Assembly: GCA_038064895.1 (NCBI GenBank)
Contig: JBBTSA010000014.1
Location: forward strand, 9,962-61,969
Direction of reading: 5' to 3'
DNA length: 52,008 nt
Origin: Patescibacteria group bacterium
GTDB lineage: Bacteria; Patescibacteriota; Microgenomatia; Daviesbacterales; UBA10151
Below, piece by piece: positions 6,203 through 43,996 of this stretch. A model generated the notes under the pieces. That model saw only the letters and a program-made list of their open reading frames with translations, did not search any database and was not told the origin of the DNA. Each line of letters begins with the position of its first letter. The stretch's first letter is position 1. Both the position numbers and the translations under genes were made by a program.

Positions 6203-7381
6203 CTATGGGTTCGAGAATTTGTCAAGTTCCCTTTTAACAAGCTCCAAAATTTCTTTCTTAAATCTCATCTTTGAAAATTTTTCAGCCTGCTTCCTTAAGT
6301 CTTCCGCCTTAAATTTATCTGGATTAAAATCTTTGAGCACTTCTGCCAAACTGTCCACTGTAATCTGTCCCCTGTCCACTCCATACAATATTCCAGTTTT
6401 TTGGTCAACTGTTTCTAAAAATCCACCCTCTTTTGGAGCTATAACAGGAGTGCCACAAGCCTGTGATTCAACTGCAACAATTCCAAAATCCTCATCTTCT
6501 GAAGCTAAAACTGTAGCTTTTGCCCCTGCGTATAATCCAGGAAGTTCCTCGTCACTAACCTGGCCTAAAAATTGTACGTCATTGTGAGGACCCCGAGCCC
6601 CTCGGTCCTGAGGACCTCGGGATCGAAGGACTTGTAGAGGGGGACGAAGCAATCTTTTCAAATTTTCTAGTTCAGGTCCTGATCCAACAACTTTTAGTGG
6701 TAAACCCAGTTTGACACATGCTTCAACAACTGTATCCATTCCCTTACCTCTTACCAATCTTCCAACAGAAAGAAAATATTCTTTTTCCCCTTTACGCTTT
6801 ACCCTTTTCCCTAGTTCCACTGGTGGATATATCACTACACTGTCTCTTCTGTAAAACTTTTTAATCCTATCAGCTACATTTTTTGAATTGGCTACCAAAA
6901 TATCCGGCCGCTGCGAAGTCTCAAAATCATAAATTCTAAGAAAATGATTTGCTATCTCTCCCAAAATTTTAGTTACTGGATTTTTTTTATAATTAAAAGA
7001 GGTTGTATAACCATATAAATACCTTGGAGGAGTATGTATATAGCTTATGTGTAAGCTTCCAGGCTTTGTAATAACAGCCTTCGAAAAATATATTGCACAA
7101 GAAGAGATAACCAAATCATATTCACTCATATCGAAACTTTCAAATATCATTGGTGCAAAAATCCTGAATGGAGAAATTAATCTATTGGCAAATGGAACTC
7201 TTTGTAGCCATGAAGTTCTGATATCCCAATCAGAAAACCGTTTTGCATGGGGTCCTAAACCAGATGGAGTAAAATATGCAATATATACAGGAGCTTTAGG
7301 AAAAATCTCATGCAAAGCTTCTAAAACGCGTTCTGCTCCACCATACTCCTTCAAGTAGTCATGTACCAGGGCGACTTTCAT
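6203..7381 (-). CDS. glycosyltransferase family 4 (GT-B fold)
   Basis: 392 aa. N-terminus MKVALVHDYL..YGGAERV and C-terminal EDFGIVAVESQACGTPVIA (E-x7-E-type motif). Carries a 26-codon repeat-element insertion. Confidence 0.85.
   Translation of the reverse strand: MKVALVHDYLKEYGGAERVLEALHEIFPKAPVYIAYFTPSGLGPHAKRFSDWDIRTSWLQRVPFANRLISPFRIFAPMIFESFDMSEYDLVISSCAIYFSKAVITKPGSLHISYIHTPPRYLYGYTTSFNYKKNPVTKILGEIANHFLRIYDFETSQRPDILVANSKNVADRIKKFYRRDSVVIYPPVELGKRVKRKGEKEYFLSVGRLVRGKGMDTVVEACVKLGLPLKVVGSGPELENLKRLLRPPLQVLRSRGPQDRGARGPHNDVQFLGQVSDEELPGLYAGAKATVLASEDEDFGIVAVESQACGTPVIAPKEGGFLETVDQKTGILYGVDRGQITVDSLAEVLKDFNPDKFKAEDLRKQAEKFSKMRFKKEILELVKRELDKFSNP
6578..6655. repeat. GC-rich mini-element, family A (termini AGATTGCTTCG ... 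CCTCACAATGAC), in frame in the GT4 gene
   Basis: 78 nt = 26 codons, translated RLLRPPLQVLRSRGPQDRGARGPHND. Termini match the copies in polA. Confidence 0.8.
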
Positions 7382-23385: not shown

Positions 23386-24350
23386 CTAAGTAGATTAGGG
23401 ATCTCATCAGGAGTTTTGGCAATAGTTACTCCGGCAGACTTCAAAGACTCTATTTTTGATTTATATGAGCCTTTGTCACCATAAACTATGGCTCCTGCGT
23501 GGCCCAACTTAGTTCCTTGTGGTAAGGACTCTGCAAATAAACCAGATATAAAAGCCACAACCTTCTTGGTAAACTTTAGTCCTGAGCGATCCGGCGATAG
23601 CCGGAGAGTCGAAGGATTTCCATTCCTAATCATCTCTGCTGCTTCTTCCTCATATGTCCCTCCTATTTCTCCAAAGATTACCACAGCAGTAGTCTGAGGA
23701 TCTTTTTCAAAGTCCTCCAGTAAATCTGCAAAGGTTGTTCCTTCCAGAATATCTCCACCTATCCCAATCACAGTAGACTGCCCTATTCCATTTTTAGTTA
23801 AAATCCAGGAAACTTCAGATGCCATTCCTCCTGATTTGGAAATTACCCCAACAGATCCTTTGGAAAATACTCCTCTTGGATCATCTCCTCCTATTTGTCC
23901 TACCTTCCCAATTCCCGGAGAAATAATACCCATTGAAGATGGTCCTACAACCCTGATCCTCACCTCGGAGGTGTGATTAGTTGCTCCTTGTTTCACCTCC
24001 GAGGTGTGACGAGCTAAAGCTATAGCCTTAGCAGTATCTGCAATTGGTACATGTTCAGTAAAAACATTTATAAGGGGAATTTGAGCCTTTATAGTCTCTT
24101 CCATGGCACCAAAAACTGCAAAGTTAGGAACAGAAATTAAAGAAGTATTAATTCCTGGATGATTCTCCAAAGCCTCAGCAATGGTGTTATAAACAGGAAC
24201 CCCATGAACCTCTTGTCCACCTTTTCCGGGAGTTACTCCAGCCAAGACTTTAGTGCCATAATTTTTCATCTGCAAAGTAACCTTCTGGCCTTCTTTACCA
24301 GTTATTCCCTGAACTAGTACTTTGGTGGTGTTGGTAACCAATATAGCCAC
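23382..24350 (-). CDS. succinyl/citryl-CoA synthetase alpha-type subunit (CoA-binding, phosphohistidine)
   Basis: 322 aa, GTG start with AGGAG 7 nt upstream. QGITGKEG, GVTPGKGG, GIGGD and GHAGAIV (catalytic His) motifs. Two in-frame repeat insertions. Confidence 0.85.
   Translation of the reverse strand: MAILVTNTTKVLVQGITGKEGQKVTLQMKNYGTKVLAGVTPGKGGQEVHGVPVYNTIAEALENHPGINTSLISVPNFAVFGAMEETIKAQIPLINVFTEHVPIADTAKAIALARHTSEVKQGATNHTSEVRIRVVGPSSMGIISPGIGKVGQIGGDDPRGVFSKGSVGVISKSGGMASEVSWILTKNGIGQSTVIGIGGDILEGTTFADLLEDFEKDPQTTAVVIFGEIGGTYEEEAAEMIRNGNPSTLRLSPDRSGLKFTKKVVAFISGLFAESLPQGTKLGHAGAIVYGDKGSYKSKIESLKSAGVTIAKTPDEIPNLLS
23581..23616. repeat. GC-rich mini-element family B (CCTGAGC...GTCGAAGG), in frame
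   Basis: cctgagcgatccggcgatagccggagagtcgaagga. 36 nt = 12 codons (PSTLRLSPDRSG). 33/36 identical to 25144-25179. Confidence 0.85.
23960..24009. repeat. inverted pair of 13-nt GC-rich palindromes, in frame
   Basis: tCACCTCGGAGGTGtga ... tCACCTCCGAGGTGtga, translated HTSEVKQGATNHTSEV. Confidence 0.8.
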
Positions 24351-24515: not shown

Positions 24516-25721
24516 TTATTTTCCATATGCTAAATCTACCATGACCTTAGCTGTAGAGGTCATTGGTGTCTCCCTTCCAAAAATATGAAAATCAAATCCT
24601 TCTTTTTTTCCTATTACTTTTAACTCCTCAAAAGCTTTTTTATCATTTGGCCCACCCCTTCTTATCACAATTGGGTATTTTGGTTTAATTTCTCTTAAGG
24701 CCTCTACAAATCCCATTAAAGTTTCATAAATATCAGTAAAATTAGCTGTCCCCCCCACAAACCAACATCCTTTTAAACCGGGTTTACTTAAAACAATCTT
24801 GGTTAACTTTTCTAGTTTTTCCCTTGGAGGGTTACCAGAATGTTCTGTATAATTTGCAGGTTTTCCTCCATAAGCTATCAGAGCATCCATATTAACAATA
24901 GATCCCCCGCCTCCAGCAGCAATTACAGCTATATCTCCATCTAGATCCCAATAAACTGATCCAGCAGTTCCCCTGTGATCTCCTTGATCTATTTTTCTTG
25001 CCTCAATTTCAGCTTCAGTTGGAGGCCTGCCAAAAAGATTTCTTTCAGGAAACTCTACCCCGATTAAATCGGGGTTCTCTCTTCTTCTAAAAGTGGCATC
25101 ATCATCCAAAATTATCTTAGCGTCTAACGCAAGATAATTTTGCCCTGAGCGATCCGGCGAAAGCTGGAGAGTCGAAGGGCTACCTTTGCCCACAGCTAAG
25201 GGATTAATCTCAGCCAATTCACAATCATATTTTATAAATACTTCCCATAATTTTTTGACTGTTTCTACTAAATAACCTGGGAGGTTAATTAGGTTTGCAC
25301 CTAGGGGGTCCAACATATCAACAGGTTCAGTTTTTGTTTCCTTTTCCTCAGTTCCAGTTCCTCCCTCCCCAAAAGTCATTACTGGTCCTCTTGTTTCTGT
25401 AGAGTATGAGAATGAAAGATAGTATTCTTTATCTATATCAACAACTTCCTCAACAAGGATTTTTTCTACTTTTTCTCCATTTACAGTTTGCTTAAAAAGT
25501 TTTTCTACTTCCCCCTTAACGCTTCCCCCTTTACCCTTAACAACCACAATTCCCCCCCCTTCTGCTCTATTCCCAGATAAAACCTGAGCTTTTAGGACTA
25601 AAGGTGGCTTAATTATTACCCTTTGACTCTTTTGACTTTGTGACTCTAATAGCTGACTCTTGGGAACTAATATTCCACAGCTTTTAAAAAGCTTTTTCCC
25701 CTCAAATTCATAAAGAAGCAT
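24516..25721 (-). CDS. succinyl/citryl-CoA synthetase beta-type subunit (ATP-grasp)
   Basis: 401 aa. MLLYEFEGKKLF N-terminus (SucC-like), ATP-grasp region, C-terminal IAAGGGGSIVNMDAL..GGKPANY ligase-CoA motif. One in-frame repeat insertion. Confidence 0.8.
   Translation of the reverse strand: MLLYEFEGKKLFKSCGILVPKSQLLESQSQKSQRVIIKPPLVLKAQVLSGNRAEGGGIVVVKGKGGSVKGEVEKLFKQTVNGEKVEKILVEEVVDIDKEYYLSFSYSTETRGPVMTFGEGGTGTEEKETKTEPVDMLDPLGANLINLPGYLVETVKKLWEVFIKYDCELAEINPLAVGKGSPSTLQLSPDRSGQNYLALDAKIILDDDATFRRRENPDLIGVEFPERNLFGRPPTEAEIEARKIDQGDHRGTAGSVYWDLDGDIAVIAAGGGGSIVNMDALIAYGGKPANYTEHSGNPPREKLEKLTKIVLSKPGLKGCWFVGGTANFTDIYETLMGFVEALREIKPKYPIVIRRGGPNDKKAFEELKVIGKKEGFDFHIFGRETPMTSTAKVMVDLAYGK
25144..25179. 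repeat. GC-rich mini-element family B, in frame
   Basis: cctgagcgatccggcgaaagctggagagtcgaaggg. 36 nt (PSTLQLSPDRSG). The internal ccggc-gaaa-gctgg can form a GAAA-capped stem. Confidence 0.85.
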
Positions 25722-32666: not shown

Positions 32667-32684
32667 GAGGTAATGTGGTTATAT

Positions 32685-32720
32685 ATAAAAAGTTCTAACA
32701 GCATCCTCCCCCCGCAACAC
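32685..32720. repeat. 36-nt direct repeat ending in a copy of the tRNA(CAU) 3' end
   Basis: ATAAAAAGTTCTAACAgcatcctccCCCCGCAACAC. Positions 32704-32719 match tRNA 30963-30978 at 15/16 nt. Confidence 0.75.
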
Positions 32721-32769
32721 AGTGGTTAATTAGGCTATGGTAATAACCTAATCATTTAATAAGATTGTT

Positions 32770-33495
32770 TCATGAACGAGCTATAACAAGCTCTCGTTCA
32801 GGTAAAATTGGTATTGTTGGTTCCTCGTAATCCCCATCAAAGAACTGATGAAATGTTAGCTCAATACCACGGAATTTCTTAGCATCCGCAGCCAACCAAA
32901 CAAACGTTATTCGGCCAAAATCGGCATTGCCTTCCGCATCACTTTCAATCTCTACCTCACCAATATCTTTTAGATTAAAAAGGTTCTTTTCTCTGACTAT
33001 AACTGGATTACCTTCTTCAAGTGATTGCATTCTTCTGGCAACTGCTGGAGCGCTTAAATTCCAGGCAGCCATATATTTTTCCTTATTAAGTTTTACATCC
33101 ACATAAGTATTTAAAAGTCTGGCATATTCAGAAGGGCTGCGAAGTGGGAATCCAAAGCGCAATATATACGGTATCTCATCATATTCCATATCCTGAAAAG
33201 TATTTCCTTCACGGAAGACTCCCTTGAATATGACATCACCAAATGGCTTTTCTACCTGGAAACGCCCATTATTTACAAGCATTTGAGCCATTGCCTCTGG
33301 ATTTTCACTAATAATATCAACGCGCCCCTCAATGCTATGAAGTGATATTCTTCTCCTGAGTAAAAGTGTATGACTATATCTTTCTGGGATATCCATAACA
33401 TTCTCTCCCTTTTTAGGCCAATATGCCCTGCGCATCCTTGCAAAAGGCTTAATCGGTACATCCATTGGGACTACTAGAAGATTTTCTGCTGACAT
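32770..33495 (-). CDS. hypothetical protein (single-gene cassette between two direct repeats)
   Basis: 241-aa ORF with no motif recognised. Confidence 0.55.
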   Translation of the reverse strand: MSAENLLVVPMDVPIKPFARMRRAYWPKKGENVMDIPERYSHTLLLRRRISLHSIEGRVDIISENPEAMAQMLVNNGRFQVEKPFGDVIFKGVFREGNTFQDMEYDEIPYILRFGFPLRSPSEYARLLNTYVDVKLNKEKYMAAWNLSAPAVARRMQSLEEGNPVIVREKNLFNLKDIGEVEIESDAEGNADFGRITFVWLAADAKKFRGIELTFHQFFDGDYEEPTIPILPERELVIARS

Positions 33496-33546
33496 AGCCT
33501 GATATTAAAACACATTCAGTTCGTTGAATCAAATAAACTAAGCTAA

Positions 33547-33582
33547 ATAAAAAGTTCTAACATCGTTCCATCCCCGCAACAC
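33547..33582. repeat. 36-nt direct repeat, second copy
   Basis: ATAAAAAGTTCTAACAtcgttccatCCCCGCAACAC. Shares both flanks (16 nt + 11 nt) with 32685-32720. Confidence 0.75.
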
Positions 33583-34035: not shown

Positions 34036-34899
34036 ATGACCGCTCTTAAAGATGCCCACAAACAATTTATTGACTATCTTAAGGGCAAAAATCGTGCCTC
34101 TGCTACTATCTTAGCCTATGGGAAAGACATTGATCAACTGGTAGTCTATTTGGAGAACTTAGGCAAAACCGATCCAGACACAGTTAACACTGAAGATCTC
34201 CAAGCTTTCATGGAAAAATTATCAAAAGAAGCTTATACCCCAAAATCAATCTCAAGAAAAACAAATTCAACTAAAACATTCTTTAAATTCCTAAAAACCC
34301 AAGGATTTGCTAATGAAGATGCGGCAGCAGGACTTTTACATCCCAAATTTGAGAATAAGCCTCCAAGAATATTAACAAAGCTTGAATATAGAGCCTTAAG
34401 GGATGCTGCCAGAACAGATGTTAGAATGCTTGGTGTTATTGAACTCTTACTCCAAACTGGTGTTAGGATTGGTGAACTTGCAAAACTTAGAGTTGAAGAT
34501 ATAGATTTACAAAATGGGACAATCCATGTTCCCCTATTTGAAGATACAAGAGAAAGAACTATCCCATTAAATACTCCTGCTGCAGAGGCAGTTAGAAAAT
34601 ATTTGGAAATAAGACCCAAAACTCAAAACCATGCACTTTTTATTACTAAAACAGGAAGACCCCTTTTAATTAGAAATATTAGGGCTGCAATTGATAGATA
34701 TTTTAGAATTGCAGGAATAAAGATGGCTAAAGTTAATGACTTAAGACACACCTGGGTTGCACATCAGCTTCAATCAGGAGTATCTTTGGTAACTGTTTCC
34801 AAGCTTGCAGGGCATAAAAGATTATCAACAACTGAAAGATATCTTCAATTCATCCAAAACCATAATGGAGATAGTAAGGTAAAACTGGAGGAATTATAA
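34036..34899 (+). CDS. tyrosine recombinase, XerC/XerD family
   Basis: 287 aa. N-terminal SAM-like core-binding domain. Catalytic region RIGEL.., LRHTWVAH, GHKRLSTTERY (R..HxxR..Y). Confidence 0.85.
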   Translation: MTALKDAHKQFIDYLKGKNRASATILAYGKDIDQLVVYLENLGKTDPDTVNTEDLQAFMEKLSKEAYTPKSISRKTNSTKTFFKFLKTQGFANEDAAAGLLHPKFENKPPRILTKLEYRALRDAARTDVRMLGVIELLLQTGVRIGELAKLRVEDIDLQNGTIHVPLFEDTRERTIPLNTPAAEAVRKYLEIRPKTQNHALFITKTGRPLLIRNIRAAIDRYFRIAGIKMAKVNDLRHTWVAHQLQSGVSLVTVSKLAGHKRLSTTERYLQFIQNHNGDSKVKLEEL

Positions 34900-35273
34900 T
34901 GTCTGAACAGCAAGAATTAAGACCTTCACTCAATGAAATCGTTGATCAAGCTAAAGCTAACTTTTGGTCAAAAGACCGTGTAGAACGAGAAGATAATCTT
35001 TTTGAATCTTATAACTATCTTATGGCAGCAGACGATGCTGTGGTTCAGTCTAATATAGACGCAGTAGCACAACTACCATTTGTAATACGACAAACTAAAA
35101 TAAGAGCTAATGATATTGAGTGGAGTGATTTTTGTGACAGTTTAGAAAACGATCTAAACTGGGAGAGTTTTTGTCGCCATATTATTGAAGAAATCACAGC
35201 ACAGGAGTTATTATCAGATCCCATGGTTGCAGTTGAGGAGCAACGAAGATATGATACAGAAAATGAAATATAA
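34899..35273 (+). CDS. acidic hypothetical protein
   Basis: 124 aa, rich in Asp/Glu. Its ATG overlaps the recombinase stop (TAATG). Confidence 0.55.
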   Translation: MSEQQELRPSLNEIVDQAKANFWSKDRVEREDNLFESYNYLMAADDAVVQSNIDAVAQLPFVIRQTKIRANDIEWSDFCDSLENDLNWESFCRHIIEEITAQELLSDPMVAVEEQRRYDTENEI

Positions 35274-35322: not shown

Positions 35323-35339
35323 TGTGGGCGGACCTGGAT
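35323..35339. repeat. 17-nt direct repeat (copy 1), part of a tRNA 3'-end-like fragment
   Basis: tgtgggcggacctggat. With the next 6 nt, the reverse complement reads CGAATCCAGGTCCGCCCA (T-loop/acceptor-like). Confidence 0.7.
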
Positions 35340-35355
35340 TCGGCAAAACGCGCTC

Positions 35356-35384
35356 TTGACAAATTCTTTTCTTTTTAGTATTCT
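35356..35384 (+). promoter_or_regulatory. putative promoter plus palindromic operator for the AbrB-PIN module
   Basis: ttgaca (35356-61), N17, tattct, followed by the near-palindrome ttctaaaatttagaattttagaa. Confidence 0.35.
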
Positions 35385-35416
35385 AAAATTTAGAATTTTA
35401 GAAAGTAGGAAAAATT

Positions 35417-35674
35417 ATGCAGCAAGTAGTTATTAAACCGCTAGCCAAAGGCCAAATCACCATTCCGATATCTTTCAGGAAAACCCTGGGAATAGATAAA
35501 TCTACCCTTTTTAAAGCACAGTTAAAAAAAGACGGAATACTTCTTACTCCTCTGCAATTTGACTGGCAGGAAAAATACATCAGGGAATTTACGGATGATG
35601 AAATCAAAGAGTGGCTTAGGGAAGACAGGCTTGATAAAAAAGAGCTCAAAAAAATCAAGCAATACCTTAAATGA
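35417..35674 (+). CDS. AbrB/MazE-type antitoxin
   Basis: 85 aa. KGQITIPISFRKTLGI SpoVT/AbrB motif. 4-nt overlap with the PIN gene. Confidence 0.75.
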   Translation: MQQVVIKPLAKGQITIPISFRKTLGIDKSTLFKAQLKKDGILLTPLQFDWQEKYIREFTDDEIKEWLREDRLDKKELKKIKQYLK

Positions 35675-36105
35675 AGGTTTTTCTGGATGCCTCTGTAATT
35701 ATTACCGGAATAAATTCCAAAAACTCTGCCTCTAATATTATTCTGAAGCTTTCTCAAAAAGGAAAAATTAAAACCTTTGTTTCCTCTATTACTCTGAATG
35801 AGGTAATAAGAAACTTAAATAAAAAGTTTCCAAAAGAGGTACTGCAGGATTTTCTAACCTATCTTTCTAAAAGCAATTTTAAAAAAATAGAATTTAAGGA
35901 TGAATCGGAAGTTTTAAAATTTCAAGGAGTAACTACTCAAAAAGATATTCATGTTATAGCAGCGGCAAGTAAAGCCAAGGTAGATTTTATAATTACTTTT
36001 GATAGAAAACACTTATTATCCATTAAAGAAGGCACTTTACCGTTTATAATTCTTTCACCAGCTGATTTGATTAAGAAAATATTCTCAAAAAACCAATCTA
36101 AATAG
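35671..36105 (+). CDS. PIN-domain toxin
   Basis: 144 aa. MKVFLDASVII N-terminus and TFDRKH near the C-terminus (PIN acidic residues). Confidence 0.75.
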   Translation: MKVFLDASVIITGINSKNSASNIILKLSQKGKIKTFVSSITLNEVIRNLNKKFPKEVLQDFLTYLSKSNFKKIEFKDESEVLKFQGVTTQKDIHVIAAASKAKVDFIITFDRKHLLSIKEGTLPFIILSPADLIKKIFSKNQSK

Positions 36106-36110
36106 ATGAG

Positions 36111-36127
36111 TGTGGGCGGACCTGGAT
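36111..36127. repeat. 17-nt direct repeat (copy 2)
   Basis: tgtgggcggacctggat is identical to 35323-35339. It lies 42 nt from the 3' end of tRNA-Ile. Confidence 0.7.
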
Positions 36128-36169
36128 AAGTAACCTGTCCTTCGGACAGAACGAACCAGGAACCAGTTG

Positions 36170-36241
36170 TAGGCCCGGAAGGAGTCGAACCCTCGTCATC
36201 ACTGTATAAGAATGAGGTATTAACCGTTATACGACGGGCCT
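36170..36241 (-). tRNA. tRNA-Ile (anticodon UAU)
   Basis: Hand-folded 72-nt cloverleaf: AGGCCCG/CGGGCCT acceptor stem, U8, D stem GTAT/ATAC with GG loop, anticodon stem TCATT/AGTGA, loop CTTATAC, T arm GAGGG-TTCGACT-CCTTC, discriminator A. Confidence 0.85.
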
Positions 36242-36275: not shown

Positions 36276-36342
36276 ATGCCGAATCCTGAAAGTGTTATCC
36301 CGAATTTATTTCGGGATCTTCAGGACAAGCTTGTTTCGGCAT
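36276..36342. repeat. 67-nt imperfect palindromic element
   Basis: ATGCCGAAtCCTGAAagtgttATCCCGAAtttatTTCGGGATcTTCAGGacaagcttgtTTCGGCAT. It overlaps the 3' end of the GIY-YIG ORF and supplies its C-terminal tail. Confidence 0.75.
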
Positions 36343-36619
36343 CTACTGATAAATCCCTAAGAGTTGGATTAGTATTTTTAATCAAATTTAGCTTCCATTC
36401 TCTGTGCCAATTCTTTAATTGTTTTTCTCTTACTAATGCATCGTTTACCTGACTACACTCTTCAAAATAAATTAATTTCTTCAGTTTGTACTTTTTAGTA
36501 AAACCATCTATAAGTTCATTTTTGTGTTCATATATTCTTCTCTCTAGATTATTGGTAACCCCTATATAAAGGGTTGTATTGTTTTTATTAGTTAGAATAT
36601 ACACATAGTAAGAATTCAT
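36320..36619 (-). CDS. GIY-YIG nuclease family protein (small)
   Basis: 99 aa. YYVYILTNKNNTTLYIGVTNNLERRIYEHK, ALVREKQLK. The last about 15 aa are encoded by the palindromic element. Confidence 0.8.
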   Translation of the reverse strand: MNSYYVYILTNKNNTTLYIGVTNNLERRIYEHKNELIDGFTKKYKLKKLIYFEECSQVNDALVREKQLKNWHREWKLNLIKNTNPTLRDLSVDAETSLS

Positions 36620-39316: not shown

Positions 39317-40036
39317 ATGCAACTTAAGGCTAAAAAAATCAAAAAAGAAACTAAAGGCATCTTTAGTTTAATTTTGGAAAAACCAGAAAATTTTATGTTT
39401 TATCCTGGACAATTTTTAGATATTGAACTACCAGTGAATGATCCAAAAGGTAACACCAGAATTTTATCTATTTCATCATCCCCCTCTGAAGATTTTATAA
39501 TGCTTACCTTTAAGCTAACTTCAAGTCCTTTTAATAAGAAGTTGCAGGATTTAAAGGTAGGTGATTTAATTTCTTCCTCTTATCCTGCTGGAACTGTAGT
39601 TATAGATGATTCATCTCCTATTATCTTTATGGCAGGAGGAATTGGAATTGCTCCACACAGATCTATGATTAAATGGGCAGTGGATCAATCCCGATTAAAT
39701 CGGGATCAAAAGCTTAATTTACCAATAACCTTAATTTATTCCAATTCAGATTCAGATTTTATATTCAAAAAAGAGCTGGATCAGTGGGTAAAAACTTATC
39801 CCAAACTTACTATCCACTACATAGTTACATCAAAAGATGGCCGTTTGGATTCAGAGAAATTAAAACTATACCCTATACCCTACCTCCGCGGAGCGGAGGC
39901 AAGCTCTGCTTATACCCTATATCCTATCTTCTACCTGGCTGGACCTCCAAGTATGGTTGATGATTTTGAAAATATTCTTTTAAATTTAGGAATTGATGAA
40001 ACTTCAATAAGAACTGATAGATTTGATGGGCTTTAG
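39317..40036 (+). CDS. FNR-type FAD/NAD(P)-binding oxidoreductase
   Basis: 239 aa. RILSISS (RxYS-type FAD motif), MAGGIGIAP (NAD-binding), C-terminal YLAGPPSMV. Contains an in-frame GC-rich insertion. Confidence 0.75.
   Translation: MQLKAKKIKKETKGIFSLILEKPENFMFYPGQFLDIELPVNDPKGNTRILSISSSPSEDFIMLTFKLTSSPFNKKLQDLKVGDLISSSYPAGTVVIDDSSPIIFMAGGIGIAPHRSMIKWAVDQSRLNRDQKLNLPITLIYSNSDSDFIFKKELDQWVKTYPKLTIHYIVTSKDGRLDSEKLKLYPIPYLRGAEASSAYTLYPIFYLAGPPSMVDDFENILLNLGIDETSIRTDRFDGL
39868..39925. repeat. GC-rich palindrome (CCTCCGCGGAGCGGAGG) flanked by TACCCTAT-type short repeats, in frame
   Basis: Translated YPIPYLRGAEASSAYTLYP, directly before the conserved YLAGPP motif. Confidence 0.7.
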
Positions 40037-40381
40037 GGTTCTCCCTTTCCTACCATAAATCCCTTGATAAATCACTTTACCCACAATTTGATCCATATTT
40101 ATTGGTCCAAAATCTCTACTATCAATACTTTCTTGTTTGTTGTCACCCTCAAGCCAAACCTGATCACCATCAATTTTCTGTATTCTTTTTATAATTTCCC
40201 TGTTCACTGTACCTCTTCGAGCCTGAGCCTCAGAGCCGAAGGCCTGTTTACTGTTAATTACTACAATATCTCCAACTTTTGGATTTACAAACCAATTAAC
40301 AGACAAAACATCCTGACCAGGATAAAGGGTTGGAGTCATGGAATTACCTGAAACTGTAAATCTTGAAATTGGACTTTTCAA
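40004..40381 (-). CDS. sodX: S26-family peptidase, Ni-SOD maturation protease-like
   Basis: 125 aa. VSGNSMTPTL catalytic Ser motif. Immediately downstream of sodN, overlapping it by 4 nt. Confidence 0.7.
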   Translation of the reverse strand: MKSPISRFTVSGNSMTPTLYPGQDVLSVNWFVNPKVGDIVVINSKQAFGSEAQARRGTVNREIIKRIQKIDGDQVWLEGDNKQESIDSRDFGPINMDQIVGKVIYQGIYGRKGRTLKPIKSISSY

Positions 40382-40821
40382 TGTGTGTGAGTTTTTTCAA
40401 AAATAACTGCTATTTTATCAACAGCTTCAATTAACTCCTTGGCTTTTACTTCATCCACTGCCCTTTTATTATCAGAACATAGTTTGGCTGTTTTCCAAAT
40501 TAGATCATGAAGATCCGGAAATTTTTCTAAATGTTCACTCTTAAAATAATCTGTCCAAAGAATAAGAATTTCTTTTTTACAAATTTCTGCATGTTCTTCT
40601 TTAACCTGAACCATCCTAACAAAACTATTTCTATCTTCCACAGAAGCATTTTCCTTCGGGAGTTCATTAATTTTTTGAACCATGGTTAAGACAGTCTTAG
40701 CAGCAAGCTGGGCACTTTTAGGATCATAAATTCCGCAAGGAATATCACAATGAGCATATACTGACCTTGTAGGAAGAAGTTTAATTAAAAAATCCAGAAT
40801 TCTCACAATTTTATTATACAC
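40378..40821 (-). CDS. sodN: nickel superoxide dismutase precursor
   Basis: 147 aa (GTG start). Ni-hook HCDIPCGIYDP preceded by a cleavable leader. Confidence 0.85.
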   Translation of the reverse strand: MYNKIVRILDFLIKLLPTRSVYAHCDIPCGIYDPKSAQLAAKTVLTMVQKINELPKENASVEDRNSFVRMVQVKEEHAEICKKEILILWTDYFKSEHLEKFPDLHDLIWKTAKLCSDNKRAVDEVKAKELIEAVDKIAVIFEKTHTH

Positions 40822-40823
40822 CT

Positions 40824-40910
40824 ATTTTAAATTTTCTAAATCCCGATCTAATCGGGATAAATATTCTTCTGCTTGCCCCGCGAAGCCTTGGCGAAGTGGG
40901 GCATCAAAGG
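40824..40910. repeat. direct repeat DR1: copy of the trxB 3' coding end, itself interrupted by a 30-nt GC-rich element (40873-40902)
   Basis: 40824-40869 is 46/46 identical to 43024-43069. It still reads EEYLSRLDRDLENLK-stop, and the sodN GTG start follows that pseudo-stop directly. Confidence 0.85.
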
Positions 40911-40915
40911 CTACT

Positions 40916-41185
40916 TTAATCATATAATTCTGGGTGTGTTCCTATTGCAACAAAATAGGCAACCGGTTCTCCTAATTCATTCATTTCTTCATAAATAGCT
41001 CTGTAGTCAGCGGTTACATCAATACTTCTATATCCTACATATTCATCTTTTAATGGATGATTATTAAGCTGAGGGTCAAATGGATTTTCTTGAAAAATTG
41101 CTATTTTTTCTTTAAGGCTTTTACGTATTCTAACATCGAGCTTTTTAAATCTCTCAATAAAGAGAGTGTCATATTTTACTATCAT
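40916..41185 (-). CDS. relE: RelE/ParE-family toxin
   Basis: 89 aa. Typical RelE/YafQ-like pattern (..LNNHPLKDEYVGYRSIDV..DYRAIY). 4-nt overlap with the antitoxin gene. Confidence 0.75.
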   Translation of the reverse strand: MIVKYDTLFIERFKKLDVRIRKSLKEKIAIFQENPFDPQLNNHPLKDEYVGYRSIDVTADYRAIYEEMNELGEPVAYFVAIGTHPELYD

Positions 41186-41463
41186 ATCTCATGATCTTCG
41201 AGATATTTTATTGCATCCTTAGCACTTTTGAAAGCCGGAGAGGTGTTTCCTTTTCTATAGTTTTCTTTTGCTTGCTTCATAATAGACCTAAGGTATGCAT
41301 TTGGTCTTTCTTCCAGACTAAAATGAACTTCTTTTGTCCTGATTAGATGTCTTAAATAGCCATCAATTAAACTACTTAAAGAAAATCCTAGATTTTTAGC
41401 TACTTTTTGAGCTTTTTTCTTAGTTTCAGGTTCAGTTTTAATATTAATTACGGCTGTTTGCAT
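41182..41463 (-). CDS. relB: RelB/DinJ-family antitoxin
   Basis: 93 aa. N-terminal RHH-like INIKTEPETKKKAQKVAKNLGFSLSSLI. Confidence 0.7.
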   Translation of the reverse strand: MQTAVINIKTEPETKKKAQKVAKNLGFSLSSLIDGYLRHLIRTKEVHFSLEERPNAYLRSIMKQAKENYRKGNTSPAFKSAKDAIKYLEDHEI

Positions 41464-41530
41464 AGTTTAACTCCAACTTACTATATATACTAAGTATATA
41501 CTTTATATATACCTAATGTCAAGTCTTAAT

Positions 41531-41583
41531 ATTTTCTAAATCCCGATCAAATCGGGATAAATATTCTTCTGCATCAAATGCTG
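41531..41583. repeat. direct repeat DR2: diverged copy of the trxB 3' coding end
   Basis: attttctaaatcccgatcAaatcgggataaatattcttcTGcatcaaatgcTgc. Still an open frame reading AAFDAEEYLSRFDRDLENIKT-stop. Confidence 0.8.
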
Positions 41584-41594
41584 CTTAATTTTTC

Positions 41595-41744
41595 CTAATC
41601 TTTTATTTTGTATTCTTTTGTACTAATAAGAATCACTAGCGGCTTACCTGACCTTGTAACTGTAATCTTCTTTCTACCAAAGTGGACTTCATTTAAAATC
41701 TCGGCAAAATTCTGCCTGGCATATTTAGCAGTAACAGTCTTCAT
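41595..41744 (-). CDS. Phd/YefM-type antitoxin, orphan (no toxin gene follows)
   Basis: 49-aa ORF not in the supplied track: MKTVTAKYARQNFAEILNEVHFGRKKITVTRSGKPLVILISTKEYKIKD. Classic Phd/YefM N-terminal domain. Confidence 0.65.
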   Translation of the reverse strand: MKTVTAKYARQNFAEILNEVHFGRKKITVTRSGKPLVILISTKEYKIKD

Positions 41745-42096
41745 TAAACTTATTTTATAAATTCAATCTGGAAAATGCAAATTGTGTACATTTGATACAC
41801 TTTGTATATATTGACAAAATTCAGCAATAGCTTTATTCTGTCAATATATGTTGAAAGTTAAGGTCAGTTGCGGGAATAGTCAATCTAGTGAAATGAATTT
41901 TATATCTGTTTGTTTCCTCAGATAAATTTCCCACTAAATTGTTGTGGGTGTCTCTTATCAGCTGAAGGAGATTAAATCCAGCAATGGTAAGCGTCGGTAA
42001 CACGAGGTTGCGTAAAACATTATGGTATGTACCGAGAAACACAGACCATATAACAACCAGCCCACACAGAAATTATAATATGGATGTAGGTTATTT

Positions 42097-42357
42097 ATGG
42101 GAATGTTTAATTCAATTATTTTAAAAGATCCAATTAAATGCCCTAAATGTGGGATGGAACTTAAAGATTGGCAATCAAAAGACGTATGGTACCTTAAGTA
42201 CCCAGTGGCTAACGTGCTAATGGACATCACTCTTAGTTCAAGGGTAGATTGTGAAGCTCATACATTTTGTGATAACTGTGGAGAGTGGGTAGATTTGGAG
42301 ATTAAAAAGGGCAAAATTGTTAAGCAGGAGCATCATCCCACACCACATTCGGAATGA
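42097..42357 (+). CDS. zinc-ribbon hypothetical protein
   Basis: 86 aa. CPKCG ... CDNCG pair. Confidence 0.5.
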   Translation: MGMFNSIILKDPIKCPKCGMELKDWQSKDVWYLKYPVANVLMDITLSSRVDCEAHTFCDNCGEWVDLEIKKGKIVKQEHHPTPHSE

Positions 42358-42361
42358 ATAA

Positions 42362-42405
42362 AAATCCCTAGGTGGCGTATCTGATCCACCTCCCAGGTGG
42401 GATTT
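42362..42405. terminator. hairpin between convergent genes (possible bidirectional terminator)
   Basis: aaatccc-t-AGGTGG-cgtatctgat-CCACCT-ccc-AGGTGG-gattt, with alternative stems. Confidence 0.35.
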
Positions 42406-42413
42406 AGAACTGG

Positions 42414-43025
42414 CTAAACTACTTCAGCTACTACCCTTGCTGGAGCACCATCAAGTTGAAGTTTTAAAGGAAGAGCATAAATCTTAAATTCCTTGCCTTC
42501 AAGCTGCTCTACATTTGTTAGATTTTCAATTATTAGAATACTATTTTTAAGCAGAATTTTATGGATGGGAAATGTTGTATCACCCTTATCTACACTGCAG
42601 TTATCCAAACCCACCATTTTTACTCTTTTAGCTACAAGATAATTTGCAACCTCCTCATCCATAACCGGGTAATTATCATAATATTCCTGCTTTCCCCACA
42701 AATTGGCCATTCCTGTATTAAATACAACAATATCCCCCTCCCTAATATCAGCCCTTTCAATTTCAGTAAAATCAAAATCTTTAGTATTTATATAAACTCC
42801 TCTTCCTATCAGTCTATCCAACAGGAATTCATCCAAGTTTTTTCCCCCGGATATCATATGTCTTGGGGCATCAACGTGGGTGCTAACATGGGTACAAAAG
42901 GAAACATAATGTTGTTCAAAACCATCTTTTTCCAAATCTCCGGCATTTTCAATTTTATTTGCTGGATCACCGGGGAAAATAGGCATTCTTTCGGTTATTG
43001 GATGTGATAAATCAATAAATTTCAT
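42414..43025 (-). CDS. cyclase-family protein / kynurenine formamidase-like
   Basis: 203 aa. IDLSHPI..PIFPGDP, HVSTHVDAPRH, GLDNCSVD, IENL..PLKL..GAPARV. Full putative-cyclase motif set. Its ATG overlaps the trxB stop (ATGA). Confidence 0.8.
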   Translation of the reverse strand: MKFIDLSHPITERMPIFPGDPANKIENAGDLEKDGFEQHYVSFCTHVSTHVDAPRHMISGGKNLDEFLLDRLIGRGVYINTKDFDFTEIERADIREGDIVVFNTGMANLWGKQEYYDNYPVMDEEVANYLVAKRVKMVGLDNCSVDKGDTTFPIHKILLKNSILIIENLTNVEQLEGKEFKIYALPLKLQLDGAPARVVAEVV

Positions 43026-43996
43026 TTTAAATTTTCTAAATCCCGATCTAATCGGGATAAATATTCTTCAACATCAAATGCAGCTTTGCATCCCATGCCT
43101 GCTGCTGTGACTGCTTGTCTGTAATGATAATCAGCAACATCACCTGCTACAAATACCCCTTTCACTTCCGTATGGGTTTCATTTAAAACCTTCACATATC
43201 CTTTTTCATCTAAAGGCAGTTGTCCTTTTAAAAATCCTGTATTTGGCTTGTGACCTATGGCAATAAATACTCCATCTATTCCTAATTGGCTAATCTTCCC
43301 ATTTTGAGTATTTTTTAATCTCACTCCTGTTACTTTATCCTGTCCTGAGCTTGTCGAAGGATCTTGTCCTAATATCTCCTCAACAACAGTATTCCAGATA
43401 AAATCTACATTTTTCTTGGATTTTACTAACTCTTGTAATGCTAATTGTGCTCTAAGTTTATCACGACGATGAACCACAATTACTTTTTTACAAAGTTTGG
43501 AAAGATAGGCTGCCTCCCTCATGGCAGTATCCCCTCCTCCAACAACAATTACATTTTTATCTTTAAAGAAAAATCCATCACAAACAGCACAGGATGAAAC
43601 ACCTTTGCCGATTAACCTTTGTTCAGAGGGAATTCCCAACCACATTGCAGAGGCACCAGTGGCTATAATCAAGGTTTCAGTTTTCAGGTTACAGGTTTCA
43701 GTTTTAATAACAAATGGTCTAGCTTGCAAATCAACTGATACAACATCCTCATCAACGAATCTGGTATCAAATCTCTCTGCCTGCTTTCTCATTTTTTCCA
43801 TCAGCTCCGGCCCTTGGATGCCAGTATCAAAGCCTGGGAAATCATCAACATCAGTTGTAAGCATAAGCTGTCCCCCAGCTTCCCTGCCAGACACCACCAC
43901 AGGAGCTAAGCTCCCACGAGCAGCATAAATTGCAGCTGTTAAACCAGCAGGGCCTGAACCAATGATGATCAGTTTCTCAATCGTGGATTTGTCCAT
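43022..43996 (-). CDS. trxB: thioredoxin-disulfide reductase
   Basis: 324 aa. GSGPAGLTAAIYAAR, redox CAVCDG, GGGDTAMREA, GVFVAGDV. Confidence 0.92.
   Translation of the reverse strand: MDKSTIEKLIIIGSGPAGLTAAIYAARGSLAPVVVSGREAGGQLMLTTDVDDFPGFDTGIQGPELMEKMRKQAERFDTRFVDEDVVSVDLQARPFVIKTETCNLKTETLIIATGASAMWLGIPSEQRLIGKGVSSCAVCDGFFFKDKNVIVVGGGDTAMREAAYLSKLCKKVIVVHRRDKLRAQLALQELVKSKKNVDFIWNTVVEEILGQDPSTSSGQDKVTGVRLKNTQNGKISQLGIDGVFIAIGHKPNTGFLKGQLPLDEKGYVKVLNETHTEVKGVFVAGDVADYHYRQAVTAAGMGCKAAFDVEEYLSRLDRDLENLK
43024..43084. repeat. direct repeat DR3 = authentic 3' end of trxB
   Basis: Template of DR1 and DR2. Contains the 8-bp inverted repeat atcccgat-cta-atcgggat. Confidence 0.85.
43338..43370. 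repeat. short family-B GC-rich element in frame in trxB
   Basis: The core cctgagcttgtcgaagga reads PSTSSG on the coding strand. These are the same termini and frame as the 36-nt copies in the synthetase genes. Confidence 0.7.

Follow-up and report, generated by a model that had tools for sequence, protein, structure and literature searches.

In Dehalococcoides, tandem genomic islands have been described at the ssrA 3′ end, where the repeat is 20 bp long, the islands extend over many kb, most of them contain the serine-recombinase module DsiB, and some, without integration modules, were interpreted as cis-mobilizable (PMC3146451). For protein genes, CIMEs and site-specific accretion at the 3′ end are known from ICESt1/ICESt3 at fda of Streptococcus thermophilus, CIMEs being decayed ICEs or IMEs to which a related ICE supplies the integrase (PMC5704250, review). 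Integrase-less modules thought to be moved by host Xer include the Acinetobacter dif modules, which lie on plasmids between 28-bp XerC/XerD sites, and IMEX, which lie at the chromosomal dif (PMC6449649, PMC13141974). In Neisseria, minimal mobile elements are exchanged by transformation and homologous recombination, and they replace each other, do not stack and leave no duplicated flanking-gene ends (PMC3787668, citing Saunders and Snyder 2002).

The trxB array of a groundwater Daviesbacteria (CPR) genome is a miniature, integrase-less version of the known pattern of tandem islands at a gene 3′ end, represented by one fixed array, and the pattern has clear precedents in tandem islands bounded by gene-3′-end repeats, in CIMEs and in minimal mobile elements. 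Members of the CPR (Patescibacteria) have tiny genomes, and little is known on how accessory genes are gained and reshuffled in them. At this locus, the end of a housekeeping gene carries a stack of cassette-sized units without an integrase, and the tail copies double as promoter or coding sequence.

Structure of the trxB-sodN locus

The locus was analysed within the whole 52-kb stretch of DNA (hereafter the window). Two units of 0.7 and 1.5 kb, each closed by a copy of the ~65-nt trxB tail, lie between trxB and sodN in the order trxB-[A]-cyclase/Zn-ribbon/nc-phd-[B]-relBE-[C]-sodN, with the following features.

43022..43996, minus strand: trxB (thioredoxin-disulfide reductase), full length, 324 aa (Pfam Pyr_redox_2, E 3.9e-49)
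43022..43087, minus strand: tail A, the genuine trxB 3′ end, starting with the K codon in GCKAAFD and including the stop, KAAFDVEEYLSRLDRDLENLK-stop
42414..43025, minus strand: cyclase/arylformamidase-family gene (Pfam Cyclase, E 1.5e-31)
42097..42357, plus strand: zinc-ribbon-like ORF, 86 aa, CxxC...CxxC, convergent with the cyclase gene
41938..42066, minus strand: conserved non-coding element (nc) of ~128 nt, upstream of phd
41595..41744, minus strand: short Phd/YefM-type antitoxin, 49 aa (Pfam PhdYeFM_antitox, E 1.9e-12)
41519..41586, minus strand: tail B, truncated 3′ end from another trxB allele, (K)AAFDAEEYLSRFDRDLENIKT-stop, with its own TGA stop
41493..41522, minus strand: relBE promoter, TTGACA-18-TATACT, 11/12 matches
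41182-41463, minus strand: relB (Pfam RelB, PF04221, above cut-off; NCBIfam RelB_DinJ)
40916-41185, minus strand: relE/yafQ-type toxin gene (Pfam YafQ/ParE; RelE_StbE TIGR02385, 31.3 bits against a cut-off of 27.9)
40822..40917, minus strand: tail C, truncated 3′ end of trxB, (K)VAFDA-[30-nt insert]-EEYLSRLDRDLENLK-stop, TAG stop, abutting sodN
40871..40900, no strand: GC-rich hairpin insert of 30 nt within tail C
40813..40840, minus strand: sodN promoter-like site, TTTAGA-16-TATAAT, 10/12 matches
40378..40821, minus strand: sodN (Ni superoxide dismutase; Pfam Sod_Ni, E 9.6e-45)

The tails derive from trxB. By direct comparison, the trxB 3′ end at 43024-43069 (43024 being the T of the TGA stop) was identical to 40824-40869 at 46/46 positions, the identity ending on both sides, and the middle copy at 41531-41583 differed from 43031-43083 at 4/53 positions; the perfect repeat and four-mismatch copy reported in the initial annotation were thus recovered. 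A repeat search of the window returned these sequences as a 61-nt family at 40826/41526/43026, spaced by exactly 700 and 1500 nt, which is the longest direct repeat of the window; across the tails the repeat comprises 46-66 nt of protein-coding gene. The TrxB frame is kept in every copy (EEYLSR[L/F]DRDLEN[L/I]K) and every tail contains ATCCCGAT-N3-ATCGGGAT, both in agreement with the initial annotation. Tails B and C begin at the same codon, and the sequence to the left of each is not from trxB. In line with the earlier view of the middle copy as an imported trxB tail, it is a different trxB allele with its own stop and the ending ENIKT-stop, as in homologue P0016; the loop base also differs. 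Deletion of the 30-nt insert from tail C restores GCCTTTGATGCAGAAGAA (AFDAEE), as expected from the claim that a GC-rich element had entered the distal copy, and the insert is one of several GC-rich hairpin mini-insertions that occur at scattered places in the window. When tails A and C were aligned, 5 differences were counted in the first 18 nt and 0 in the next 46 (chance of all five falling within the first 18 nt, ~0.001), a mosaic which points to recombination inside the tails; 20 nt, GAAGAATATTTATCCCGATT, are common to all three copies.

The gene content named earlier (TrxB, RelB-RelE, an orphan Phd, a zinc-ribbon gene and a cyclase gene overlapping the trxB stop) was found again, weakly in the case of the zinc-ribbon ORF, for which Pfam zinc-ribbon matches were sub-threshold only and which is called as a gene in contigs L097 and L098. 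The trxB product is 72-84% identical to Daviesbacteria TrxB, and the cyclase ATG overlaps the trxB stop (AAAATGA; ATGA). In relatives the cyclase gene is an ordinary neighbourhood gene and not obviously foreign cargo; its orthologue in L093 and L095 lies upstream of a glutaredoxin gene and has no trxB tail in its vicinity. Phd (PF02604, 47 bits; cut-off 29.8) has no toxin partner and is 88% identical in amino acids to the copy in the related contig L014. The non-coding element, which gave no match in Rfam, is 95% identical to L014 9364-9488, whereas the neighbouring core genes trxB and PAP2 are ~68-70% identical. The overlapping relB and relE form an adjacent type II antitoxin-toxin pair (span 40916..41463) whose products are 59% and 53% identical, respectively, to the L014 pair.

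The relBE promoter is the best promoter-like site of the region; its −35 box overlaps the tail B stop codon, and in L014 the homologous promoter lies 3 nt past the stop of a full-length trxB. At the sodN site the −35 box lies within tail C and the −10 box directly past the tail C stop, and the same layout (TTGGAA-16-TATTAT) is present in L013, where trxB and sodN are adjacent. The true sodN start is probably the GTG at 40806, a later start supported by a 142-aa gene call in L097 and by the leader lengths of relatives. Each tail thus carries an overlapping signal (TrxB C-terminus, relBE promoter, sodN promoter), because of which the tails would persist: tail A completes TrxB and couples the cyclase gene to trxB, and tails B and C hold the −35 boxes of relBE and sodN, respectively.

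Logan contigs break exactly at the tails, so the repeats do confuse assemblers, and a metagenome assembly chimera, joined at k-mers common to the trxB genes of co-existing strains, was considered. Such an origin is scarcely credible, since in other samples and with other assemblers tail B (L097-L101) and tail C (L001 and L097) were spanned at 100% identity, and the sister contig L096 (96.6% identity) spans a homologous tail A together with the trxB-cyclase junction; L098 merely begins within tail A. Moreover, the non-trxB left flanks of tails B and C could not come from a chimera of full-length genes.

Related loci and the origin of the array

Synteny was compared in eight related species. In four of them (seven contigs: L002, L013, L015 and L131-134) trxB is directly followed by sodN, and in the other four different inserts lie between the two genes, namely a SWEET gene (L004), a 128-aa ORF (L006), a 155-aa ORF with VapBC (L003), and relBE, nc-phd and two other ORFs (L014). 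The gap content therefore differs between the same flanking core genes without mobility genes, as in a minimal mobile element or hotspot. The tail C-sodN junction shows homology to the empty L013 site, and insertion at the trxB/sodN junction, as proposed initially, is borne out by this homology and by the four species with adjacent genes. The tail B-relBE junction occurs beside the full-length trxB of L014, and the tail A-cyclase junction recurs in L096. The relBE and phd modules of L014 are homologous to those of the array, in a different order and without extra tails; no repeated tails were found in the filled relatives (L003, L004, L006 and L014), so that only one such array was found. Every contig overlapping the array (L001 and L097-L101) was 100% identical to it, and neither excision nor empty variants were seen among them. 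Variation at the site was thus seen between species only, and current mobility was not seen, the array being identical in all samples where it was found.

The reading favoured here, though tentatively and at somewhat less than an even chance, is that the trxB-sodN junction of this Daviesbacteria lineage is a recombination hotspot filled by two successive insertion-duplication (Campbell-type) events. It is supported by the syntenic empty sites, the trxB origin of the tails, the junctions that recur in L013, L014 and L096, the mosaic of tails A and C, the lack of an integrase, the overlapping promoters, and further units of the window that are bounded by unrelated repeats. On each occasion the incoming DNA would have consisted of cargo and a ~65-70 nt copy of a trxB 3′ end, and this copy would have recombined with the resident trxB tail; each event would therefore have added its cargo and one tail copy. 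The crossovers would lie inside the tail, the 20 nt common to all copies being the candidate interval. As the cassettes encode no recombinase, host functions would have acted in trans, and homology-driven recombination of DNA taken up from relatives appears preferable to a dedicated site-specific system. The incoming DNA may have been a circle or a fragment, and its form is inferred, as are the enzyme and the order in which the two events took place. Against the Campbell-type reading stand the single array found, the shortness of the stretch available for a homologous crossover (20-46 nt) and the identity of the array in all samples. By rough estimate, independent fragments would begin at one and the same codon, as tails B and C do, only a few percent of the time, and this coincidence hints at a fixed att-like unit or at common ancestry of the boundary.

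The native nature of two junctions, tail B-relBE in L014 and tail C-sodN in L013, both beside full-length trxB, would also agree with alternative haplotypes stacked by homology-facilitated illegitimate recombination. A donor comprising trxB, its tail and downstream genes would have been anchored in trxB and joined illegitimately at its far end to an AAAG microhomology in the resident trxB, with the resident tail staying behind as a remnant; two such rounds would have taken place, and A and C would have become identical over 46 nt by later gene conversion. The sequence TTAA(A)G stands at both remnant junctions, adjacent to the K codon with its AAAG, and relatives exchange gap content without repeats, as do the minimal mobile elements of Neisseria (PMC3787668). 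Two independent illegitimate joins at the same codon would however be required, together with a separate conversion event for the 5/18 versus 0/46 split between A and C, and this origin is considered unlikely.

If the trxB-tail region had been duplicated locally in tandem and the duplicated content had then diverged or been replaced, this would account for repeats that are direct and close together. Such an origin is disfavoured as very improbable, since the two units have nothing in common in their content (their genes fall into different Pfam families and show no in-register similarity, in line with the initial claim that the cassettes lack homology), the allele of tail B is distinct in both its ending and its loop base, and the homology of the relBE and nc-phd modules to those of L014 indicates import.

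Recombinase, palindrome and integron-type features

The comparison with known mobile systems involved two further features.

34036..34899, plus strand: Xer-like tyrosine recombinase (Pfam Phage_integrase plus SAM_1; best NCBIfam models XerA/C/D)
43040..43058, no strand: palindrome of tail A, ATCCCGAT-CTA-ATCGGGAT

The former is the sole tyrosine recombinase of the window and lies 6 kb from the array. It scored 76.5 bits with the integron integrase model TIGR02249, against a cut-off of 265, and is 77-91% identical to proteins encoded at the same position in L002, L013 and L015; in L132-134 a 287-aa integrase gene is called at that position. In all relatives with a contig extending to this position the gene is syntenic, empty-site genomes included, and the recombinase named in the initial annotation is thus conserved and not cassette-associated. 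Scans with Pfam, NCBIfam and PADLOC found no integration or transfer genes in the cassette ORFs, and the earlier statement that no integrase lies inside or adjoining the cassettes stands. Downstream of trxB no integrase was found in the eight related species (L002-L004, L006, L013-L015 and L131-L134), nor was an ICE or IME with an integrase at the same att site, or remnants of one.

The motif ATCCCGAT-N3-ATCGGGAT had 5 matches in the window against 0 expected from shuffles. Compared with most TrxB, the palindrome and a 2-nt duplication (TT) together make up an in-frame insertion of 21 nt (SRLDRDL), which is missing in ~115/120 TrxB homologues. It forms the sole hairpin folded by the tails, of 8 bp, with DNA fold z-scores of −3.7 to −4.8. 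An FNR-like gene also contains the palindrome (39688) and a variant of it lies at 25057; the 21-nt hairpin insertion, present in these two other window genes, is not specific to trxB. Read by eye, the tail site may also be taken as 11-7-11, TATTTATCCCG-ATTAGAT-CGGGATTTAGA, with an arm symmetry of 8/11.

A dedicated site-specific cassette system of integron or IMEX type, in which the tail would be the att site with the palindrome as core and a tyrosine recombinase such as the Xer-like protein would move circles in trans, deserves consideration and is somewhat unlikely. The palindrome is present in all three tails and the inferred crossover interval includes its left arm, tails B and C have the same left boundary, the cassettes are small and TA-rich, a conserved Xer-like gene is near, and Xer is known to be exploited by elements without an integrase, among them the Acinetobacter dif modules (PMC6449649). 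As in TA-rich chromosomal superintegrons, small repeat-bounded units stand in tandem and include a type II TA pair with its own promoter, and judging from the sequence the first unit would be expressed from the promoter of the upstream gene. Unlike integrons, the array has no intI with attI and Pc beside it in the window, the repeats are the coding end of a housekeeping gene, one unit carries several genes on both strands, and the array varies only between species and not between close strains. A regex scan for the attC core (GTTRRRY/RYYYAAC) gave no match within or beside any tail, and the 4 matches in 40781-43110 correspond to background density. Behind the integron-like outcome proposed initially, nothing specific to integrons was therefore found, since the tails have no attC cores and only an 8-bp hairpin, and the recombinase falls far below the intI cut-off.

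GC skew stayed negative over the whole 52 kb without changing sign, so that the site is not the chromosomal dif. Nor, by eye, did the tails resemble the E. coli dif sequence. The array resembles Xer-dependent elements in its integrase-less modules, often TA, bounded by short partly palindromic sites; unlike IMEX and dif modules it does not lie at a skew switch and has direct repeats of 46-66 nt. Further evidence against a dedicated system is that the recombinase is syntenic in empty-site genomes, that the palindrome has no cassette at 39688 or 25057, that the L014 site is filled although its trxB is without the palindrome, that other repeat-bounded units of the window use unrelated sequences, and that no polymorphism was seen within the population. 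Three unrelated repeats cannot be explained by one sequence-specific recombinase, and a homology-based process, as in the Campbell-type reading, can explain them.

The array shares with the Dehalococcoides islands the arrangement of tandem units directly downstream of a conserved gene, bounded by its 3′-end repeat, and differs from them in its longer repeat from a protein gene, its units of 0.7 and 1.5 kb and the absence of a cognate integrase in the eight related species examined. As in CIMEs, the direct repeats include the target-gene 3′ end, the proximal copy completes trxB, and the units contain no integration or transfer genes; unlike CIMEs, the array has neither ICE or IME remnants nor an integrase supplied by such an element, and its units are cassette-sized. 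With the Neisseria minimal mobile elements it shares variable genes without mobility genes between the same conserved flanks in close relatives, and it differs in its stacked units and duplicated trxB ends.

Other repeat-bounded units in the window

A broader reading, speculative and quite unlikely, is that the CPR have an undescribed integrase-less cassette system in which small accessory modules, mostly TA, carry a short copy of local chromosomal sequence as a portable recombination site. The sites would be the trxB 3′ end here and repeats of 17 and 39 nt elsewhere in the window, and the units would be stacked and shuffled by the host, through its single Xer-like recombinase or through RecA after natural transformation. 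Functionally, such a system would be the counterpart of integrons in reduced genomes. If the process that made the array also made the other repeat-bounded TA units of the window, it would offer the CPR a general way to gain genes at low cost, and truncated gene ends beside TA cassettes would be the signature to search for.

A perfect 17-nt repeat (35323/36111) flanks a vapBC cassette on both sides, and a 39-nt repeat (32682/33544) does so for a 241-aa ORF. Among short exact direct repeats 200-4000 nt apart, 8 non-tail pairs were counted in the window, against ~0.85 in shuffles.

Layout of the trxB-tail array and its support in independent assemblies

The host genome belonged to Candidatus Daviesbacteria (Microgenomates, CPR) from Hainich groundwater; the TrxB proteins closest to that of the window were annotated as Daviesbacteria, and Hain_* contigs were identical to parts of the window. 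Three copies of the trxB 3′ end, designated tails A (43022-43087), B (41519-41586) and C (40822-40917; all on the minus strand), were arranged among the following features.

Features of the trxB-sodN interval (tails in gene-strand reading)
43996-43022, minus strand: trxB, ending in tail A, KAAFDVEEYLSRLDRDLENLK and stop
43025-42414, minus strand: cyclase-family gene, its ATG overlapping the trxB stop
42097-42357, plus strand (opposite to the array): zinc-ribbon-like ORF
Between the zinc-ribbon-like ORF and phd: non-coding DNA of about 350 nt
41744-41595, minus strand: short phd, then tail B, (K)AAFDAEEYLSRFDRDLENIKT with its own TGA stop
41463-40916, minus strand: relB-relE, then tail C, (K)VAFDA, a 30-nt GC-rich insert and EEYLSRLDRDLENLK, with TAG at the end
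Starting at 40821 or 40806, minus strand: sodN, then the sodX protease gene

The three-copy repeat was recovered as the initial annotation had described it, with 46/46 identity between 43024-43069 and 40824-40869 and 4 mismatches over 53 nt in the copy at 41531-41583, and was the longest direct repeat of the window. Similarity to trxB started at one codon, the K of GCKAAFD, in both tails B and C, each of which was immediately preceded by ATTAA. A circle of the relBE cassette would be expected to carry the junction order relE end, tail, relBE promoter (...TATGATTAAAGTAGCC...ATCGGGATTTAGAAAATATTAAGACTTGACA...).

In contigs from other samples and assemblers, tail B was spanned at 100% identity by L097-L101 and tail C by L001 and L097, and a sister contig (L096, 96.6%) ran across a homologous copy of tail A, including the trxB-cyclase junction seen here. 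The array is real and is not confined to one assembly. The start-to-start spacings of the tails (40826/41526/43026) were exactly 700 and 1500 nt, and were treated as coincidence because independent assemblies reproduced the sequence. The array was invariant within the population, and exact look-ups of the RelB and Phd proteins returned no other arrangement, every contig being identical to the window. A short tandem duplication (GGTTTCAGTTTT...), giving KTETCNLKTET, was also present within trxB at 43672-43706.

The trxB-sodN gap in related genomes

Relatives shared the gene order PAP2, small ORF, trxB, gap, sodN, sodX, (FNR-like gene), DUF8128 ATPase, tRNA-Ile and xer. The gap was empty in four species (L013, L015, L002 and the species of L131-L134) and otherwise filled in four.

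Gap contents in the four species with a filled gap
L004: SWEET gene, opposite strand
L006: 128-aa ORF
L003: 155-aa ORF and VapBC
L014: relBE, an ORF, non-coding element with phd (nc-phd), another ORF

The initial annotation had opposed its reading to an arrangement shared by all relatives, with homologous contents arising by local duplication; between species this did not hold, as the gap content differed, whereas polymorphism was lacking within the population. From the alignment of gaaaatttaaaataaGTGgtattatattgtg at the empty site of L013 with the copy C-sodN junction of the window (gaaaatttaaaatagGTGtataataaaattgtg), copy C followed by sodN is the ancestral junction. The L014 relBE pair shared 59% and 53% amino acid identity with that of the window, and its nc-phd module 80% nucleotide identity overall (phd, 88% amino acid identity); the two modules stood in reversed order relative to the window and lacked extra tails, and the relBE promoter started 3 nt past the stop of full-length trxB. 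Thus two of the three junctions of a tail with its downstream gene had a counterpart at a full-length trxB elsewhere, in L014 for B-relBE and in L013 for C-sodN, and the A-cyclase junction was seen again only in the sister contig L096. L014 (CAZFYQ010000015.1) is titled 'uncultured Gammaproteobacteria bacterium'; it showed Daviesbacteria synteny across 14.9 kb, most of the shared genes being 64-80% identical to their window counterparts at the protein level, and its bin is probably mislabelled or contaminated.

Extra tails outside the window were not found in any relative by tblastn and blastn. A metagenome scan with the tail pattern (TATTTATCCCGATNNNATCGGGATTT) returned 8 loci, among which the sole trxB tail was that of L006 and no array occurred; the remaining matches showed the hairpin in unrelated contexts, including intergenic ones. 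A TrxB scan of the genome collection yielded L013-L015 as the only close relatives, the other 77 loci being from distant phyla and uninformative. Alternative TrxB C-termini (e.g. ENAKIGV) were considered as element-supplied ends and rejected, as they reflect the compact trxB-sodN junction.

Of the promoter-like sites in the region, the best (11/12 matches) drives relBE, and its -35 box TTGACA overlaps the tail B stop codon. In the promoter-like site of sodN (40803-40840, 10/12 matches), the -35 box TTTAGA fell within tail C and the -10 box TATAAT followed closely on the tail C stop, 6 nt before the likely start; L013 had the same layout. For sodN, the GTG at 40806 is the probable start, with which the transcript would be nearly leaderless, and the listed start at 40821 is probably too early. 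In L002, L004 and L014, sodN had its own upstream promoter region. Since the trxB end overlaps the sodN promoter in this lineage, we infer that an insertion survives here only if this overlap is duplicated, which may be why repeats accompany the inserts here and not in L002, L004 and L014.

Mosaic tails, the palindrome and possible routes of insertion

Counted on the alignment, the 18 nt that follow AAAG contained 5 differences between tails A and C and the next 46 nt none; the chance of all five differences landing in those 18 nt was about 0.001. Tail B equalled A and C through GAAGAATATTTATCCCGATT, beyond which the hairpin loop and the end differed (ENIKT vs ENLK). This mosaic points to recombination or gene conversion having occurred inside the tails, most likely with the 20 nt common to all tails as the crossover interval. 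Stacking of haplotypes by illegitimate joining at the AAAG microhomology, followed by conversion, was considered quite unlikely.

An insert flanked by direct copies of a homologous segment is the characteristic product of single-crossover (Campbell-type, insertion-duplication) recombination, for which the incoming DNA must carry the segment. If the crossovers fell within the shared 20-46 nt, a pair of such events would reproduce both the structure and the mosaic. Homologous recombination by the host of DNA from relatives was tentatively favoured, because the cassettes come with no integrase of their own, the palindrome is a generic element, nearby units carry unrelated repeats and short exact repeats are in excess.

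Site-specific recombination at the palindrome by the Xer-like protein encoded at 34036 would account for the left boundary shared by tails B and C, which suggests a fixed unit, and was regarded as rather doubtful. The palindrome (19 nt with a 3-nt loop, 43040-43058 in tail A) together with a 2-nt duplication formed a 21-nt in-frame insertion. The usual Daviesbacteria TrxB ends in ...EEYLENLK, and SRLDRDL was absent from about 115 of the 120 best TrxB homologues. The palindrome was present in trxB of the window, L002, L003 and L006, with a one-base variant in L004; in L002 (5604) and L006 (2042) the hairpin loop gave a premature TAA, truncating TrxB at EEYLSR. The same 21-nt in-frame insertion was found in the FNR-like gene (39688-39706), the L006 orthologue of which lacked it, and in phage contigs the same hairpin resembled an A-tract/stem/T-tract terminator. 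The L014 gap was filled although the palindrome was absent, and filled gaps occurred in 4/5 species with the palindrome vs 1/4 without it (nine species, too few to mean anything). To judge from these sequences, the palindrome is a generic hairpin element of these genomes rather than an att site peculiar to trxB. The idea that it is a specific mobile or phage element was rejected, the 29 matches of a viral scan being about the number estimated by chance; most of the AT-rich matches came from one phage family and were terminator-like. GC skew was negative over the whole window, and the tail site is therefore not the chromosomal dif. A variant palindrome, a putative insertion, lay in an ATP-citrate-lyase-like gene (25057-25075).

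GC-rich hairpin mini-insertions, several of the CCTGAGC...CGAAGG type and several inside coding genes, were scattered through this 37% GC genome (40871-40900, 40218-40248, 39886-39910 and 43340-43372, with further sites at 23579-23613, 25142-25170, 12161-12191 and 6580-6627). That in trxB was in frame, adding DPSTSSGQ, and was shared by the TrxB homologue P0002.

Family searches and PADLOC on the cassette ORFs detected no recombinase gene. The initial annotation had suggested testing the recombinase encoded at 34036 on the repeat; the comparisons did not support an association of this gene with the cassettes. Its product is a 287-aa Xer-like tyrosine recombinase, for which the best models were XerA, XerC and XerD, each under its cut-off, and which scored 76 bits against the integron-integrase model (cut-off, 265). 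Counterparts with 77-91% identity occupied the corresponding syntenic position in L002, L013 and L015, each of which has an empty site, and a 287-aa integrase gene was called at that position in L132-L134; the gene at 34036 is a housekeeping gene.

The same 11-kb stretch contained further small units, flanked by repeats that were unrelated in sequence, and short exact repeats 200-4000 nt apart were about nine-fold over-represented. A vapBC cassette (35323-36127; vapB, 85 aa, 35417-35674; vapC-PIN, 35671-36105), with its own TTGACA promoter and no integrase inside, lay between perfect 17-nt direct repeats TGTGGGCGGACCTGGAT (35323/36111, spacing 788 nt), 42 nt downstream of tRNA-Ile(tat) (36169-36241). 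In relatives, the tRNA-Ile was followed by the xer 3′ end within about 6-360 nt without this cassette, one 67-aa ORF being located there in L002. A 241-aa ORF (32770-33495, minus strand) without a Pfam match lay between imperfect 39-nt direct repeats (32682/33544, region 32682-33582; 82% identity, spacing 862 nt). A GIY-YIG nuclease gene (36320-36619) was located between tRNA-Ile and DUF8128, and a 124-aa ORF (34899-35273) was fused to the xer end; the former was absent at the matching position from the gene maps of L131-L134, and tblastn against the relatives compared yielded no counterpart of the latter. This region marks a second insertion hotspot.

Known accretion patterns and cassette contents

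The outcome matches tandem accretion at a gene 3′ end. In Dehalococcoides, a repeat of 20 bp from the end of ssrA delimits tandem ssrA islands, and 15 of these islands without an integration module were interpreted as cis-mobilizable (PMC3146451); CIMEs by definition keep attL and attR and have lost the integrase (PMC5704250). The species-level variability between fixed flanking genes resembles that of minimal mobile elements (PMC3787668). The array departed from integrons in intI and attC, from IMEX in location and from dif modules in context, and from all compared systems in scale (0.7-1.5 kb), repeat length, the coding nature of the repeat, the lack of a cognate integrase among relatives and the CPR host. 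Of the initial reading as an integron-like cassette array, the real feature and its origin by insertion stood, and the integron traits fell away; the array is a variation on an already known 3′-end accretion pattern.

PADLOC gave no match to the cassette genes. The short phd was preceded by a non-coding element (41938-42066, minus strand; about 128 nt) that bears GTGGG/CCCAC ends and was 95% identical to L014 9364-9488; between these two species, the neighbouring core genes trxB and PAP2 were about 68-70% identical. The element had no Rfam, viral or phage match, no further copy was found and its predicted fold was insignificant (z about -1); an unknown RNA and a module transferred recently are both conceivable.

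The cyclase gene was rejected as mobile cargo, as its close homologues were chromosomal: those of L093 and L095 lay upstream of a glutaredoxin gene and that of L094 next to another relBE pair, none of them accompanied by a trxB tail. The cyclase-family genes of relatives (L093 980-1552, L095 577-1188) lay upstream of glutaredoxin/CTP-transferase genes, a position that is some 4 kb upstream of trxB in the common gene order and is taken by a VKOR gene in the window; the window gene after trxB (42414-43025) looks like one relocated within the neighbourhood.
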